In this document: positions 18,001-24,000 of the stretch, piece by piece | How positions within the stretch are numbered: the first letter of the stretch is position 1 | How the letters are laid out: the number at the start of each line of letters is the position of its first letter | NCBI RefSeq assembly: GCF_003334335.1 | Contig: NZ_QOWQ01000045.1 | Length of the DNA: 33,803 nucleotides | Reading direction: 5' to 3' (one strand) | DNA from: Escherichia coli | Lineage (GTDB): Bacteria > Pseudomonadota > Gammaproteobacteria > Enterobacterales > Enterobacteriaceae | Made by a program: the position numbers

Positions 18001-21000
18001 TAGCCCGCTAATCTGCTTTAACCTCAGAACTTCATCCTGGTCCATCCCCAGTTCTGTTCCGATACGTTCATCAGTCCAGCCAAGACGTGAAAGATCTCTG
18101 ACAATATCAGACATTGAGGTTATCTGGTGTTTCCCCCTGGCTCTGTTATGTCGGATAGTCGCGGCAATACGTGAGGTTTGTCCCTTTCGGTCTGGATTAA
18201 TACAGGTTACTGGTAGCCAGCCTTTCAGGCGTTTTCCAGTAACTGTTCTTCTACCTAGTAACTGCCTATGAAAACCATCCACCACCAGGTAATGGCTTGT
18301 TTCTTCCGAAACAACAATTGGTTGAGTAAAACCGTCTTTTTCCAGAGATTGTTTCAGTAATTTTTTTTCGCTTGGGGCCATGACATTGGGATTATAATCG
18401 TTAGCGACAATTTCATCCGCTTTTACCCACAGCACACAGTCCACTGGTTCTTGAGCAAAGGGGCTGATCTCATGGAGTACGCAGCGGAGATGGTTCAGGG
18501 CCTGTATGGTTTTCTCTTCAGATTGTTCCTGACTGAAGTACTGTCGAATCATCTTGCTCAGCACCTCCACCTCTGGTGTCACAGAATTCCCCATTCCTTC
18601 CTCCTTTCATTCATACGCTGCAGGTAACGTTCATAGTGCCGGGGTTTGTTGGGGCTGAAGGAGAGCGTTCGGCACCAGAAATCATTCTTTATGAGAGTCT
18701 TACAAATACGTCGCCAGGAGGGAACATCCCGGCAGCCCAGATCATTTTCCTGTTCATCCGGGATATCATCCGGGAATCCCCGGTTCTGATACCAGCGCAG
18801 GTAAACTGCTATCTTGTTGCGGTAGTGTTCAGCCGTTCTTTCCGGCATTACGTCCAGCAGGAAGAACGCATAGCTGCGCCAGGTATGATGGGATGGTTTT
18901 GACATCCGTTTACGCAGGGCAAAATAGGCCCCGCTTTCATTGGCATAAAGAGCCCCACTGGCAGCACCAGATACTCGTTCACACATCCGTGCCCAAGTTT
19001 CTGGCTCCAGAACATGATAAAGCCATAGTCCCTTACGCTGTTCCGGGCCAAAAGGCTCACAGACACGCATATTACGTAGAGGAATGCCTGCGCGGTACAT
19101 CAAATCATACAGAGGATTGTAGATTGCACAGGTTTTAGCGTTATATACCCAGATATCGTTGGTTTTCCAGTCATACAGCGGATACATGGTGTAGTAAAAA
19201 CCTTCAGGTGACGCCGTGGTCCAGGGTTTATCATCTGCATATCTCAGTTTTCGTTGGGAAACCAGTCCCATAAATCTGTTAAGAGATTCATCCGCGCGGA
19301 CTCCAGTCAGTATTGCCACGCTACATTGGTTACTTGCGAACCAGGAAGAAAAAGCCGGGACAAATTCTTCAAAAGTCATGGCGTAGCGGTAAAAGGGGAA
19401 ATACGCCATATCAGTAATAGCATCTTCCGGTGGCTGTCGAACCCACTCTACACCGGGCTCCCAGCATATCCACTCAGGCTGAAACTGCGAGACACCATTT
19501 ACTGTCGTCAGGGGAAGTGCAACCCAGTAAAAGGTATCTGTTACATCTTGGTACATCATCCGCATCTTCTGTATATGATCAATGGTGCATTGATACTGGG
19601 CTTCCCAGTCAATGAACAATACAGAAAAACGACGTTTCTTCCTGTAGGCCACTTCGGCTACAAGATGGAAAAGTACAGTGGAATCTTTACCGCCAGAAAA
19701 AGATAAACATACAGAAGAGAATGTTTCAAACAACCATTCAATGCGGTGAATGGCTGCTGACAAAACATCTTCTCCAGTTCTGATTTTTGTTATAGTTACC
19801 GGCATACAATCTGATAAAAATAGCGAGGGTTTGCATTTTACCTAGTAACGTTATGTAACTATTTTTTTGAATAAAGGCAATGAGATAATGATAAAAAATG
19901 TTTATCTAATGTACTGAGCTCTTCTCTTTATTGTATTAACTCTTCGATTTCAGCGGCGTTGTCGTTCAGGTATAAAAAAAGGAGCCGAAGCTCCTTTGGT
20001 ATCAGAATTCAAATTGTCTTGCCCGCAGGCTTTTCAGCATTGGTCTGGCCCGCTGAACTACGAAACTCGACTGGTCAAGCCGTGCCGCCTCTCTCAGTAG
20101 CACATCTCTGTTCTTCGTCACCATGTAGATAGTCTCAAACGCAATGTCATACAGCTTGTTCGTGTATGAGGAGTTCAGCTCTTTCATTATGGGGTACAGC
20201 TGCTTGCTAAGGTCCTGGGCTTTTTCCATCCAGAGCTGCATGTAGCAAAGGAGGATGATTTCCTCGGCTGTGAATTGCGGCTGTGGTTCTGCTTGTACTG
20301 GCTGAATGTTGCGAAGTTTCTTTTCGCACTCGATGAAGTAGCGGCGGATCTGGCGACCTTTTTCGTTACGTTCAACCATCGCAAGCTCTTTGGCTGTGTC
20401 GAGGGTGAGGTGGTAATCCTTGCGGCGGCGGCCTGGAGTTTTCGCCAAATTTGGCGAAAATAGAATGTAGTCTAAATTTTCTACGAATCCATACTCGTTT
20501 AGCCTGGCCCGTATCCAGTTAGAAAAATCTTTACCTACCTCTAAAAATCCATGCAAATCACGCGCGTTCACCAGAAGCGTAGGTTCATTTGAGATTGTAC
20601 CTTCAAACACAGGGATGAGTTGAGTGGTCATGATGACCTCCTTTGGCTTTTTTCGAGAAATGCCACCACAAGATGTGGTGCCGGGAGGCTCGAAACGGCC
20701 CAAAAGATACCGCGGACTTATTCCCCTTGCGGGTGTTGTATTCGTCGCCCTCCCGACATTGATCGGGGATGTGACCGCACACTGTGCTATCACTGAATAA
20801 CAGGCATAAAAAATCCAACACTGACGGGGTTGGTTTAATCCGCTTTTGGGAGGTTTTCGAGGCCTCGGCGCGGAGTATAGTCAGTATTGGACGCAGTCGT
20901 CAACCATCGCAAGCTCTTTGGCTGTGTCGAGGGTGAGGTGGTATTCCTTGCGGTTGTGACCGCCTCTACCTTTTGCTTCCCGAATTTGGGAAGCAATCAT

Positions 21001-24000
21001 ATAGTCCTGATTTTCAACGAAACCATATTCAGCAATACGTTCTGTTATCCACGATGCAAAGCGTTTACCAACCCCAAGGAAAGCGTGTAGATTGCGAGCA
21101 TTGCATAGAAGGGCTGCTTGGTTTGAGATAGAACCGTTGAATACGGGGATGAGTTGACTGGTCATGATGACCTCCTTATTTGTTTAGTTTATAACCGCCA
21201 GTTAGTAGCTGGCGGTCGGGTGTCAACTGAGCCAAATAAGAAGCTCTGGGCATATTCCCCTTGCGGGTGTTGTATTACGCCTCTCCACCCGACCTTTGTA
21301 CGGATGTAACTATGCCAAATTGCAGGCATAAAAAAGCCGCAAAGCTATCGGGTGCGGAGACCGCTTATTTGTTCAGTGCGATCAGTATGCGATAGCTCTG
21401 GCGGATTTGTCAAATCGTGCAGTAACATCCTTTTCTTCCTTGCCATTTCTCAATGATGACAAAGGGTGGATTCGGATTGGTATTGGGACAAAAGTGAGAC
21501 ACACAAAGCTTTGCATCGGCTTACAAAGCTTTGCATGTTTTTCAATGTTGGGACGTGTGAGCGCAGAAATGACGGGCTATCTAATTGATTTTAAACGATA
21601 CGTAACCAACTTTAAAATCTTTGCACGCCAGTTCGCAGGTTTTACAGCCAGTACAGCGGCTGGAATCGATAAAAAATCCATATTGTGTGGTCATGGGCTA
21701 CTCCTTAAACCTTTTCGATCTGGACAAGATTGCTGTGCGACGGGTTTCCCTTTGCCAGCGGTGAAGGGCGGTGAGAGGTCAGAATATTGATACTGCCGCC
21801 GTGATCGACCCGGTCACCAAACATATCCGCTTTAAGCCACGCACCTTGCCCGATGGCGGTAACGCCAGGCAGAATACGCGGAGTCACTTTTGCGGCAATC
21901 AGCATTTCTCCATTATTGTTAAATACCCGCACGGTATCGCCATGACGGATACCGCGTGCCTGAGCATCAATGGGGTTGATCCACACCTCTTGTGGGCAGG
22001 CCTGCTGTAACACATCAATATTGCCGTAGCTGGAGTGGGTACGCGCTTTGTAATGGAAGCCCGTTAACTGCAGTGGATAGGTTTTCCGCAGGGGATCGTC
22101 CCAGCCATCAAAACCTGGGGTATACGCAGGAAGGGGATGAATAATTTCATCTTTTTTCAATTCCCAGGTATCTGCAATCTTCGCCAGTCGTTCAGAATAA
22201 ATTTCGATTTTCCCCGAAGGTGTTTTCAACGGGTTTGCCTGTGGATCTTCACGGAATGCGCGGAAAGCGACGTAGTGTTCTTCCGGGCATTTTTTCTTAA
22301 AGATCCCGGTCGTTTTCATCTCCTCGTAGTCGGGCATCTCAGGGTTACGTTCCTTCGTTTTCGCATGGAGATATTTGATCCATTCATGCTGACTGCGACC
22401 TTCAGTAAAGGTTTGATAAACGTCTGGTCCTAAGCGTTTGGCGACTTCACTCAGCATCCAGTAGATGGGTTTGCGTTCAAATTTTGCTGAGGTTGCGGGT
22501 TGGGCGAGGATCACATAGCCCATATTCCCTGCAGATTCATGAGAGATAAGGTCTTCTTGCTCTGTTGGCATCAGGTCGGGCAACAGGATATCGCAATACT
22601 TAGCCGAGGCCGTCATGAAGTGGTCAATGCCAACAATCATCTCGCACTTGCTGTCATCCTGAAGCACCTCATGGGTGTGATTGATGTCGCCATGTTGATT
22701 GATCAATGTGTTACTGGCGTAGCACCATAAAAACTTGATGGGGACATCCAGTTTTTCTTTTCCACGAACACCATCACGGGTCGCGGTCATTTCCGTACCA
22801 TGGTCGATGGCATCTGTCCATGTAAAGACGGAAATCTGCGTTTTAACAGGATTCTCGAGCATCGGGAACCATTCTACCCCCAGATCCCAGCTACCTTCGC
22901 GTACGCCTGAGTTGCCGCCGTTTATGCCGACGTTGCCGGTGAGAACGGAAAGCATGGCAATAGCGCGGGATGTTTGCTCGCCGTTGGAATGTCGTTGTGG
23001 CCCCCAACCCTGACAAATATAAGCAGGTTTTGCTGAACCGATCTCTCGTGCCAACTGGATAATTTTTTCTGCCGGGATGCTGGTGATTTTTGCTGCCCAT
23101 TCCGGCGTTTTAGCTATGCCGTCAGGCCCTTCGCCCAGAATATAGGCTTTATAATGCGCGTTACGTGGTGCGTTGGCGGGCAGCGTTTTTTCATCGTAAC
23201 CAACACAATATTTGTCGAGAAATGGCTGATCGACCATGTTTTCAGTAATCAGTACCCAGGCAATCGCACAGGCCAGTGCGCCATCGGTGCCAGGGCGAAT
23301 GGGCAGCCATTCATCTTCACGCCCGGCAGCAGTGTCGTTATAACGTGGATCGATGACGATCATGCGTGCGTTTGAACGTTCGCGGGCTTGCTCGACGTAG
23401 TAAGTGACACCACCGCCGCTCATCCGCGTTTCTGCCGGGTTATTTCCGAACATAACGACCAGTTTCGTATTGGCGATATCATCTGGGCTGTTGCCATCAT
23501 TGGCACCGAACATATAACTCATTGCGGCACTGATCTGTGCGGTACTGTAGCTGCCATAGCGACTGAGAAAACCACCGCAAGAGTTCATCAGACGGTACGG
23601 GACGTTTGAGTTGGTGATGTTTCCGCCATCTACGCCTGTTCCGTACAGGACATGTACAGCCTCATTGCCGTAATCTTTCAGGATCCGCCGAAGATTATCA
23701 CTGATGGTATCCAGGGCTTCGTCCCAACTTATCCGTTCAAATTTACCTTCACCGCGCTTGCCGACGCGCTTCATGGGATATTTCAACCTATCAGGATGAT
23801 TCATCCGTCGGCGGATAGAGCGCCCGCGTAAACACGCTCGAACCTGATGATTACCGTAGACGTCGTCACCTGTCGTATCAGACTCCACCCAGTACACGGT
23901 GTCATCTTTCACATGCAAACGTAACAGACAGCGGCTCCCGCAGTTAACGGTGCAGGAACTCCAGACCGCTTTCTCTTCTACCGGAGCCTCTGCCGCCCGG

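Follow-up and report, generated by a model that had tools for sequence, protein, structure and literature searches.

What controls the two antA antirepressor genes that stand in tandem at the end of an Escherichia coli prophage? In the stretch of DNA analysed here (33,803 nucleotides (nt) of contig NZ_QOWQ01000045.1, assembly GCF_003334335.1; hereafter, the window), each of the two genes is preceded by a leader of similar build, and a sequence-only reading had proposed that these leaders contain a structured RNA analogous to the small RNAs (sRNAs) c4 or IsrK. Antirepressors decide prophage silence, and in Shiga toxin (Stx) phages this decision controls toxin release. We report that the leader RNA represents a known curated RNA family, sRNA-Xcc1, occurring here as two largely orthogonal tandem units that most likely are c4/IsrK-like in their working. 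All features described below lie on the minus strand unless marked otherwise.

Two sRNA-Xcc1 RNAs in the antA leaders

The whole window was scanned against all Rfam families, and positions 19800-21700 were scanned a second time at a permissive E<=10. Exactly two matches above the gathering score (GA 53) were obtained in the window, both to sRNA-Xcc1 (RF02221), at 21206-21294(-) with 69.1 bits and at 20672-20757(-) with 73.4 bits, and both cover model positions 1-87 of 87. We term the former, which precedes the truncated copy antA', unit 1, and the latter, which precedes the full-length antA, unit 2. Given that the family is curated, and that near-identical copies in genomes of Shiga toxin-producing E. 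coli (STEC) have already been labelled sRNA-Xcc1 by annotation pipelines, the element belongs to a known family. The earlier proposal thus holds in that both leaders carry a conserved structured RNA built and placed like c4 and IsrK, but not in the family it named. C4 and IsrK were rejected as family identity, the Rfam scan returning no match at E<=10, and are retained as functional analogues.

In the RF02221 model, a 9-base-pair (bp) closing stem (P1) encloses a second stem (P2), a hairpin (P3) and a 6-7-nt 3' junction (J3/1), followed by a short tail; the internal loop and GNRA-capped tip of P2 correspond to a 23-bp box, AATACAACACCCGCAAGGGGAAT. This box had been noticed as identical before both antA copies, and it does occur exactly twice, at 20720-20742 and 21254-21276, where 0 copies were expected (100 shuffles). 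Its interpretation as a conserved box of a structured RNA was correct in that it is part of the RNA; its exact role is that of a near-invariant P2 hairpin rather than of a target or promoter box. The box was rejected as a promoter element, sigma70-like sites being found only upstream (21413-21384 and 20903-20874). The leaders have a covariance-model match, small transcripts of related elements have been published, as described below, and the boxes are not -35/-10 elements.

The minimum free energy fold of the unit 1 RNA is a three-way junction (-35.8 kcal/mol, z = -3.2) that reproduces the model structure. The two leaders are diverged copies with no recent exact duplication, and their P1, P3, J3/1 and target sequences differ with compensatory changes. 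To extend the comparison, we assembled 120 viral and 120 bacterial genome contigs containing the box, yielding ~180 distinct units (about 90 viral and 92 genomic) from Gamma-, Beta-, Alpha- and Deltaproteobacteria, with a few matches elsewhere (Alistipes, Schaalia, Prosthecobacter). Alignment of the core RNAs with MAFFT and RNAalifold recovered only an invariant CCC/GGG stem, the variable helices being misaligned, and was replaced by helix-by-helix tests of cognate against non-cognate arms. Among 90 distinct viral units, own arms paired more stably than foreign ones in P1 (-18.4 vs -10.7 kcal/mol), P2 (-5.2 vs -3.0) and P3 (-5.4 vs -2.3; 0/2000 permutations each). This preference for cognate arms indicates that the structure is real and evolves by compensation; the compensatory changes that the sequence-only reading had suggested seeking in homologous leaders are thus present both between the window copies and across the helices of the family. 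The P2 box itself is nearly invariant across phyla, and the remaining parts vary.

In the 90 viral units, the base before P1 (-1) is U in 61/90, with G at +1, and an R-C-C-(C/A) tail in ~80/90. A hairpin of variable sequence, here named P4, occupies the same position family-wide; it always starts in the RCC tail, and its loop sometimes holds an extra copy of one of the target sites described below (a2). The copy-specific palindromes reported earlier are re-assigned to this P4 hairpin, which begins in the RCC(A/C) 3' tail of the RNA: both exist, ACCGCCAG..CUGGCGGU lying at 21194-21216 as first given and CACCAC..GUGGUG at 20664-20680, a little to the left of the original ~20670-20687. The segment with the unit 1 palindrome folds with z = -5.9. 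Spacings also agree with those noted before, at ~55-65 nt from U-run to box and ~20-40 nt from palindrome to the Shine-Dalgarno (SD) sequence. In Xanthomonas, sRNA-Xcc1 has been detected as a discrete RNA of ~88 nt by Northern analysis and end mapping (PMC2996969).

Complementarity to the ribosome-binding region and the upstream module

Based on a repeat scan, part of each window RNA was found to be complementary to its own SD region, through the P3 loop (b') and J3/1 (a'), a pairing that the earlier reader had overlooked. Across the comparison set, b' and a' are complementary both to each unit's own SD region (sites b2 and a2) and to an upstream duplicate of the two sites (b1 and a1), and this complementarity is cognate-specific. 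In viral units, duplexes of the 3' half of the RNA reach -20.0 kcal/mol on the unit's own downstream leader, compared with -15.3 for the leaders of other members (0/5000 permutations), whereas the 5' half, serving as a control, shows no own-leader preference (-15.3 vs -15.1 kcal/mol). The duplicated pair of sites, 57-118 nt upstream of the RNA, likewise favours the cognate RNA (-19.6 vs -15.1 kcal/mol; 0/5000). The bacterial-genome set replicates these results (-18.2 vs -13.9 kcal/mol downstream, -22.7 vs -17.9 upstream; 0/3000), and b' and a' taken separately against each site gave z = -13 to -21.

The target of the P3 loop ends 7-10 nt before the AUG in 53/90 units and so comprises the 5' part of the SD and the preceding 5-8 nt, as exemplified by the loop/target pairs UCUAGGCU/AGCCUAGGA, UCUAUGUC/GACAUAGGA and ACUGUUGA/UCAACAGGA; the second site, for J3/1, is found 17-22 nt or 40-50 nt before the AUG. 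Typically, the upstream copy of the loop target reads xxxxxAG-CGG and the SD copy xxxxxAG-GAG. A contiguous complement of >= 6 nt at -22..-5 was present for 66% of 128 distinct loops, compared with 14% for mismatched pairings. Both a' and b' are hypervariable, with 109 distinct loops in 142 units.

An open reading frame (ORF) lies downstream on the same strand; the distance from the box to its start is 101-130 nt in nearly all of the ~90 viral units and mostly 99-127 nt in the 92 genomic units. Antirepressor-type N-terminal domains are present in 62/84 distinct viral downstream proteins (Bro-N in 21, KilA-N in 13, AntA in 8, Rha in 7, ORF6N in 7 and P22_AR_N in 6), and an 80-amino acid (aa) class of downstream proteins matches an anti-repressor PHROG. 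Among chromosomal units the same domain families recur, together with 8 SymE-toxin genes and many small ORFs. Published examples fit this pattern: an Xcc1 copy lies upstream of an ORF6N gene in a study of APSE phages, and another upstream of symE in Xanthomonas cassettes (preprint 10.1101/2025.06.18.660453).

Within the window, both units carry the complete set of parts. Unit 1 begins with a sigma70-like promoter (21384..21413; TTGACA at 21413-21408, an 18-nt spacer and CATACT at 21389-21384; 10/12 match), which is conserved upstream of related units. A predicted short upstream RNA (21330..21382) follows, with a1 CACUGA at 21378-21373, b1 ACAAAUAAG at 21372-21364, then CGG, and a hairpin (T1) formed by CCGCA (21357-21353) and UGCGG (21341-21337) and followed by a U-run at 21335-21330. 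The sRNA-Xcc1 RNA (21206..21294) consists of P1a (21294-21286), the box in P2 (21276-21254), P3 (21246-21229) and P1b (21222-21214); its pairing segments are loop b' UCUUAUUU at 21241-21234 and a' AGUUGA at 21228-21223, with the tail GCCA at 21213-21210. P4 (21194..21216), ACCGCCAG-cuacuaa-CUGGCGGU, shares sequence with the RCCA tail and with the final 3 nt of P1b. The downstream target (21171..21189) comprises an a2-like AACUAAAC at ~21189-21182, b2 CAAAUAAG at 21182-21175 and the SD AAGGAGG at 21177-21171. Site b1 is a repeat of the SD-proximal target, and the unit's own antisense segment pairs with the upstream site at -13.1 kcal/mol and with the downstream target, an inverted repeat of the RNA, at -14.8 kcal/mol.

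Unit 2 has the same anatomy: a sigma70-like promoter (20874..20903; TTGACG at 20903-20898, an 18-nt spacer and TATACT at 20879-20874; 10/12 match); a short upstream RNA module (20808..20867) in which the loop of a GAGG/CCUC hairpin (20866-20850) presents a1 CUCGAAAA (20861-20854); b1, CCAAAAG (20849-20843), then CGG; and a T1 hairpin of CCAAC (20833-20829) and GUUGG (20819-20815) with a U-run at 20813-20808. The sRNA-Xcc1 RNA (20672..20757) has P1a at 20757-20749, the box at 20742-20720, P3 at 20713-20695 and P1b at 20688-20680, with loop b' (A)UCUUUUGG at 20708-20700, a' UUUCGAG at 20695-20689 and the tail ACCA at 20679-20676, in which P4 (20664..20680; CACCAC-aucuu-GUGGUG) starts. Its downstream target (20637..20657), again an inverted repeat of the RNA, comprises a2 CUCGAAA (20657-20651), b2 CCAAAGGA (20646-20639) and the SD AAGGAGG (20643-20637). 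For the antisense segment of unit 2, duplex energies are -18.7 (upstream) and -18.5 kcal/mol (downstream) on its own sites but only -5.8 and -6.1 kcal/mol on those of unit 1; the unit 1 segment reaches the unit 2 upstream site at -6.2 kcal/mol. Taken together, own and cross duplex energies show the units to be largely orthogonal, with possible one-way cross-talk. The unit 2 leader is found in >= 95 deposited phage genomes, mostly Stx2a-converting phages, where it is unannotated.

Upon comparison across the family, the segment upstream of the RNA was recognized as a module in its own right. Its order is a sigma70-like promoter, often a small hairpin whose loop carries the junction complement, then the loop target, CGG, and a hairpin with U5-7. 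The hairpin and U-run are present in 68/75 viral and 83/92 genomic units, with the U-run at a median of 45-50 nt before P1, and the T1 loop is conserved as CCCG(N2)AGC, a CCCG-containing loop being found in most units. In unit 1 the T1 loop, CACCCGA (21352-21346), is identical to the 3' strand of the closing stem P1 (CACCCGA, 21222-21216) and could therefore pair with P1a. The terminator-like hairpin ending in ttttttatgcctg that had been described earlier is indeed present at both leaders; its role is re-assigned to the 3' end of this separate short-RNA module. The hairpins in front of the U-runs (CCAAC/GUUGG at 20833-20815; CCGCA/UGCGG at 21357-21337) have loops of 9-11 nt, which is why a simple terminator scan missed both. 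The motif TTTTTTATRCCTG occurs three times in the window (20801-20813, 21323-21335 and 19967-19979), with 0 copies expected.

Evidence that the module may be expressed as an RNA comes from prophage Sp5 of E. coli O157:H7 Sakai, where c4-a1b1, isrK and C4 elements precede the antirepressor gene ECs_1199 and an sRNA-Xcc1 element precedes the antirepressor gene ECs_1251. The latter lies at the end of the prophage, as antA does in the window, so that, with the C4 type at one gene and Xcc1 at the other, two RNA types fill equivalent slots within one phage. In the Sp5 sequence (L245) the matches lie at 1319-1517 and 46366-46454; the third antirepressor gene, ECs_1214, has no RNA match in front of it. 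Between -35 box and ATG, the ECs_1251 leader differs from that of unit 1 at two positions only, and the promoters are the same but for one spacer base. EcOnc43, a peak in Hfq cross-linking and analysis of cDNA (Hfq-CRAC) that was found in 4 datasets with a Rho-independent terminator flagged, maps to 1,308,356-1,308,404 (-) in Sp5 (Tree et al., PMC4104026 Table S2). These coordinates stem from an older Sakai assembly, relative to which AsxR/EcOnc02 is offset by +135-139 and Esr41/EcOnc14 by ~+140. With an offset of about +137-140, EcOnc43 reads ACCGCACUGAACAAAUAAGCGGUCUCCGCACCCGAUAGCUUUGCGGCUU, a sequence that starts immediately downstream of the -10 box, extends to the U-run and is equivalent to window positions 21382..21334; from this extent we infer that EcOnc43 is the predicted short a1-b1-T1 RNA. 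Unit 1 has promoter, a1b1, hairpin and U-run, with a probable Hfq-bound counterpart on the near-identical Sakai leader by way of an inferred offset of +137. Placement of EcOnc43 on the Xcc1 RNA itself, as its face-value coordinates would have it, was rejected on the basis of the AsxR and Esr41 calibration. The anti-sRNAs AgvB and AsxR were considered as the upstream short RNA and rejected, their sequences, terminators and location being different and Rfam giving no match.

A probable c4/IsrK-like cassette and its alternatives

The arrangement of these parts closely follows that of the immI region of phages P1 and P7. In the annotated P1 record, promoters P2c4/P1c4 are followed by a1 (TTGACAG), b1 (GTTAGTGC), the c4 RNA (77 nt), a2 (TTGACAG), b2 (GTTAGTGA), icd and ant, with b2 lying 11-18 nt before the icd start. 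The shared order is therefore promoter, a1, b1, hairpin with U-run, RNA, a2, b2/SD and the first ORF of the ant operon. Downstream of b1, P1 reads CGGacaaCCGC..GCGGuauuuuu (ending in ...GCGGuauuuuuGUGUCC), and unit 1 likewise AAGCGGucuCCGC...GCGGcuuuuuuAUGCCUG; in P1 c4 and Xcc1 cassettes alike, b1 is followed by CGG and b2 by (G)AGG. According to its Rfam structure line, C4 also has the topology of Xcc1, comprising a closing stem, hairpin 1, hairpin 2 with a 12-nt loop corresponding to b', and a 3' junction corresponding to a'; its ends (a ..CC-ACC tail and a ..AU|GG 5' flank) agree with the flanks of Xcc1. Furthermore, c4 controls an antirepressor, and Xcc1 units mostly precede antirepressor-type genes. 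The two differ in that the closing stem is 9 bp in Xcc1 but ~17 bp in C4, that the P2 internal-loop box of Xcc1 is lacking in C4, and that the ORF regulated by Xcc1 is usually the antirepressor itself, whereas in P1 c4 it is a small icd-like upstream ORF. Processing by RNase P and repression in trans have been demonstrated for c4 only.

A second parallel is provided by IsrK of Salmonella Gifsy-1, where some transcripts stop at a leaky terminator to give an Hfq-binding short RNA, and read-through yields a translationally silent antirepressor mRNA that is activated in trans by the short RNA (PMC4825925). The isrK model matches the a1b1 and terminator segment at 35 bits in P1 and at 75.5 bits in Sakai Sp5, but it gives no match to the upstream modules of the window. 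These modules share the parts of that segment and their order, and the Hfq-CRAC peak EcOnc43 is their probable counterpart in Sakai. In Gifsy-1, moreover, the published partner of IsrK lies within orf45, and no separate three-way-junction RNA has been described; activation in trans is shown for IsrK and only inferred for the window cassettes.

Together, these findings suggest that each antA copy probably resides in a self-contained riboregulatory cassette of the c4/IsrK type. In this scheme, the sigma70 promoter would first transcribe a short segment carrying the target-like a1 and b1 and ending at a leaky T1 hairpin and U-run, transcripts that stop at T1 giving an Hfq-bound RNA of ~50-60 nt. 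Read-through transcripts would carry the ~87-nt sRNA-Xcc1 three-way-junction RNA, whose P3 loop b' and junction a' would pair with a2/b2 upstream of and overlapping the ant SD, thereby blocking ribosome binding. Occlusion of the SD would take place in cis, within the read-through transcript itself, and probably in trans as well, by an RNA cut out at the U|G junction in front of the first G of P1. Once excised, the RNA could act in trans on every cognate leader, such that the antirepressor would be silent in the lysogen under a specificity-coded, heteroimmune control. The short a1b1 RNA would compete for a'/b' and thus tune or relieve the block, by analogy with IsrK. The two tandem cassettes have different a'/b' codes; unit 1 would govern the truncated antA' and unit 2 the full antA. 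Two parts of the scheme are less secure than the whole: by analogy with c4, excision of the Xcc1 RNA from the leader by RNase P is a proposition on which we consider the arguments evenly balanced, and the same even judgement applies to a role of the short a1b1 RNA as activator, which is modelled on IsrK. On the c4/IsrK-type reading, an 8-nt loop and a 6-7-nt junction would set specificity, so that pairs of RNA and ant gene can be predicted, with EcOnc43 as the partner RNA.

Several observations weigh against this scheme. The models for C4 (RF01695), c4-a1b1 (RF03163) and isrK (RF01394), whose application to both leaders the sequence-only reading had suggested, gave no match in 19800-21700 even at E<=10, and in a like scan the C4 and c4-a1b1 models do match P1 and Sakai Sp5; homology to c4 is therefore at best remote, and the link rests on architecture. 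In silico, the T1 hairpins have little stability (-7 to -10 kcal/mol, z ~0), and the terminator scan did not report them. EcOnc43 could be assigned only by way of an offset inferred from two flanking calibrators, and the Sakai Hfq-CRAC table has no peak on the Xcc1 RNA itself. About 1/3 of distinct loops lack a clean 6-nt complement at the chosen start codon. By a naive duplex calculation, the unit 1 antisense segment reaches the unit 2 SD at -14.0 kcal/mol via P3-stem bases, and the near-invariance of the P2 box falls outside the model. Processing, action in trans, a repressive effect on the antirepressor and competition by the short RNA as a decoy are carried over by analogy from c4 and IsrK. 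The RNase P step is modelled on c4, for which it was reportedly described by Hartmann and colleagues in 1995.

Among other explanations, the one that survives best, and that we nevertheless consider unlikely, is a leader switch acting purely in cis, in which an a'/b'-a2/b2 pseudoknot within one transcript would sequester the SD and a1b1 would serve as an alternative partner, yielding OFF and ON folds with neither excision nor trans action. It would account for the tightly constrained distance from RNA to start codon and for the presence of all partners on one read-through transcript; P4 could form the turn that returns a2 to a', and the IsrK study itself shows alternative cis structures A and B (PMC4825925). 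This reading is at odds, however, with the accumulation of the discrete ~88-nt RNA in Xanthomonas, the Hfq binding of the short upstream RNA as a separate species (EcOnc43) and the annotation of P1 c4 as a separate RNA acting on target sites, and the hypervariable a'/b' beside an invariant P2 looks like a diversifying specificity, for which a cis-only fold would have no need. Action in cis is compatible with action in trans.

The published view of the family offers a different answer, namely a free-standing sRNA that acts in trans on distant host or virulence genes, its proximity to antA being incidental. In papers citing the original work, sRNA-Xcc1 is described as a HrpG/HrpX-controlled trans-acting sRNA, and targets have been put forward in Xanthomonas and Xylella. 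These published target lists consist of predictions only, and the variable single-stranded parts of the RNA covary with the adjacent SD region and the upstream duplicate over ~180 units, the RNA having the orientation of the antirepressor or SymE genes and a fixed spacing to them; as an account of the window, a free-standing sRNA thus appears highly improbable. The sRNA-Xcc1 of the Xanthomonas campestris integron cassette and the window RNAs are nonetheless alike in that they are full-length members with a three-way junction and P2 box, and in that the RNA lies upstream of, and co-oriented with, symE there. They differ in that the literature presents a virulence-linked sRNA acting in trans, while the loop and junction of the window RNAs and of the ~180 units are complementary to the SD region of the neighbouring gene and to an upstream duplicate, and in that the window holds two tandem, largely orthogonal units in an Stx-type prophage.

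We regard as marginally less credible still a riboswitch-like aptamer, in which the P2 box would bind a metabolite or a host or phage protein and thereby gate the availability of J3/1 and the P3 loop. Such a role might explain why the box is nearly invariant across phyla amid a variable rest, and a three-way junction beside an expression-platform-like region resembles riboswitch anatomy. Conversely, the Rfam scans of the window gave no match to any riboswitch family, C4 works as an antisense RNA with the same topology and layout but without the box, and upstream duplicate targets with an Hfq-bound short RNA are alien to riboswitches; an aptamer could be an added layer rather than a true rival. 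Finally, the idea that the leaders have no dedicated function, their boxes being promoter elements or vestiges of an event that duplicated antA and its upstream region in tandem, draws on the truncated antA', a 54-nt stretch that is 98% identical between the genes and the sigma70-like promoters of the region, yet is hardly tenable, as the predicted promoters lie elsewhere (21413-21384, 20903-20874), the boxes form the P2 hairpin of a curated RNA family with covariance-model matches and family-wide covariation, and the leaders differ by compensatory changes in P1, P3 and targets within an architecture that recurs in distant bacteria.

The c4/IsrK-type reading also invites comparison with the antisense RNAs sar of P22 and SymR of the type I toxin-antitoxin class. 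Each is a small antisense RNA that covers the ribosome-binding region of its target, an antirepressor for sar and a toxin for SymR, and the Xcc1 family likewise precedes SymE-domain genes, the partner gene in SymR-SymE. By contrast, sar and SymR are cis-encoded on the opposite strand and perfectly complementary, whereas Xcc1 is encoded upstream on the same strand and uses two short programmable segments. The eight Xcc1 units in front of SymE-domain genes suggest that Xcc1 in integron cassettes is an antitoxin-like partner of a type I-style SymE toxin, placed upstream on the same strand instead of antisense. Candidate arrays of such elements are found in Xylella fastidiosa: one island of strain Temecula1 (1,313,466-1,315,082) contains five Xcc1 copies at intervals of ~381-385 bp, and strain De Donno has Xcc1, isrK and C4 matches within 400 bp on one strand (1,323,982-1,324,381; PMC12189769 for both). 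Both loci look like tandem arrays of the cassette type seen in the window.

Going beyond the window, we lean towards the view that the whole sRNA-Xcc1 family is the RNA part of a portable three-part cassette, consisting of an Hfq-bound a1b1 RNA, a c4-like antisense RNA and an a2b2/SD target. If so, re-programmable pairing segments would gate antirepressors, SymE toxins and other small mobile-element genes across Proteobacteria, C4 and Xcc1 would represent alternative scaffolds within a single superfamily, and a prophage with tandem units would possess several independent immunity codes. The sRNA-Xcc1 annotation, present in hundreds of genomes, would then move from virulence sRNA to local gatekeeper of mobile-element genes, and a natural modular design for programmable translational control is suggested. 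The RNA family itself is known; what is new is its c4-type reinterpretation as a regulator of the adjacent gene. Neither a c4-type role of Xcc1 RNAs at the neighbouring gene nor a partnership with EcOnc43 was found stated in the searchable literature; c4, IsrK and sar, but not Xcc1, are covered in a 2025 review of phage sRNAs, and the only hint in the literature at an adjacent-gene role is the symE remark in the preprint cited above (10.1101/2025.06.18.660453).

Prophage end and neighbouring genes

The window consists of E. coli chromosome and a short-tailed, Stx-phage-like prophage. Two reductase genes of the ynfE/ynfF type occupy 21705-26615, and ynfG, encoding a 4Fe-4S protein and starting at ~21693(-), is broken after ~85 nt by the prophage end at ~21.6 kb, an integration site shared with Shigella phages 75/02 Stx and POCJ13. 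Over positions 19900-21620, identity is 100% with Escherichia phage PhiR5_2 and 86-89% with 75/02 Stx and POCJ13; the maps of all three phages have both genes, annotated as 'antirepressor', at their very end. Read along the minus strand, the elements are, in order, attachment (att) end, leader 1, antA', leader 2, antA and terminator.

The first gene, antA' (20881..21165; ATG at 21165), encodes 94 aa comprising the AntA N-terminal domain only and is truncated at the start of the unit 2 promoter; it matches anti-repressor Ant families of PHROG and the 95-aa family phrog_6904. The second, antA (20002..20631; ATG at 20631), encodes 209 aa with an N-terminal AntA domain (Pfam, 1.9e-26) and P22_AR_C (1.2e-7). 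The two genes share a 54-nt repeat that is 98% identical (20372-20425 and 20900-20953), their proteins being otherwise ~64% identical, and this repeat ends where antA' is cut and the -35 box of unit 2 begins. The coincidence of these boundaries indicates that the tandem array arose by cassette-level recombination, and the repeat itself indicates, as judged from sequence, a recent recombination at the cassette boundary. An intrinsic terminator 3' of antA (19967..19997) has its stem at 19997-19978, followed by the third TTTTTTATACCTG. This third copy of TTTTTTATRCCTG (19967-19979) stands directly after the terminator with no Xcc1 unit behind it, from which it appears that the motif marks the 3' boundary of three successive terminators or cassettes; on sequence grounds, it may be a recombination junction.

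A 14-bp palindrome, ACAAAGCTTTGCAT, occurs in two direct copies 20 bp apart (21499-21538) in the interval from the prophage end to the unit 1 promoter, with a third, degenerate copy in the ynfG remnant (21610-21625); the terminator scan called these repeats a 'terminator-like' hairpin. By their sequence, the copies look like candidate protein-binding sites, either for an ant-promoter operator or as integrase/att arm sites. Elsewhere in the window, a 2789-aa ORF (8817-17186, plus strand) has a homologue in phage 75/02 annotated as an LPD5 domain-containing (large polyvalent) protein, and its equivalent in Sakai Sp5 is the 8.4-kb gene ECs_1242. A 174-aa ORF (17337-17861, plus strand) has no NCBIfam match and lies on the strand opposite to its neighbours. 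An overlapping gene pair (17950-19805) encodes a 408-aa PAPS-reductase-like and a 214-aa ParB/Noc-like protein, with weak NCBIfam matches, and presumably resembles IbrA/IbrB of E. coli prophage-like elements.

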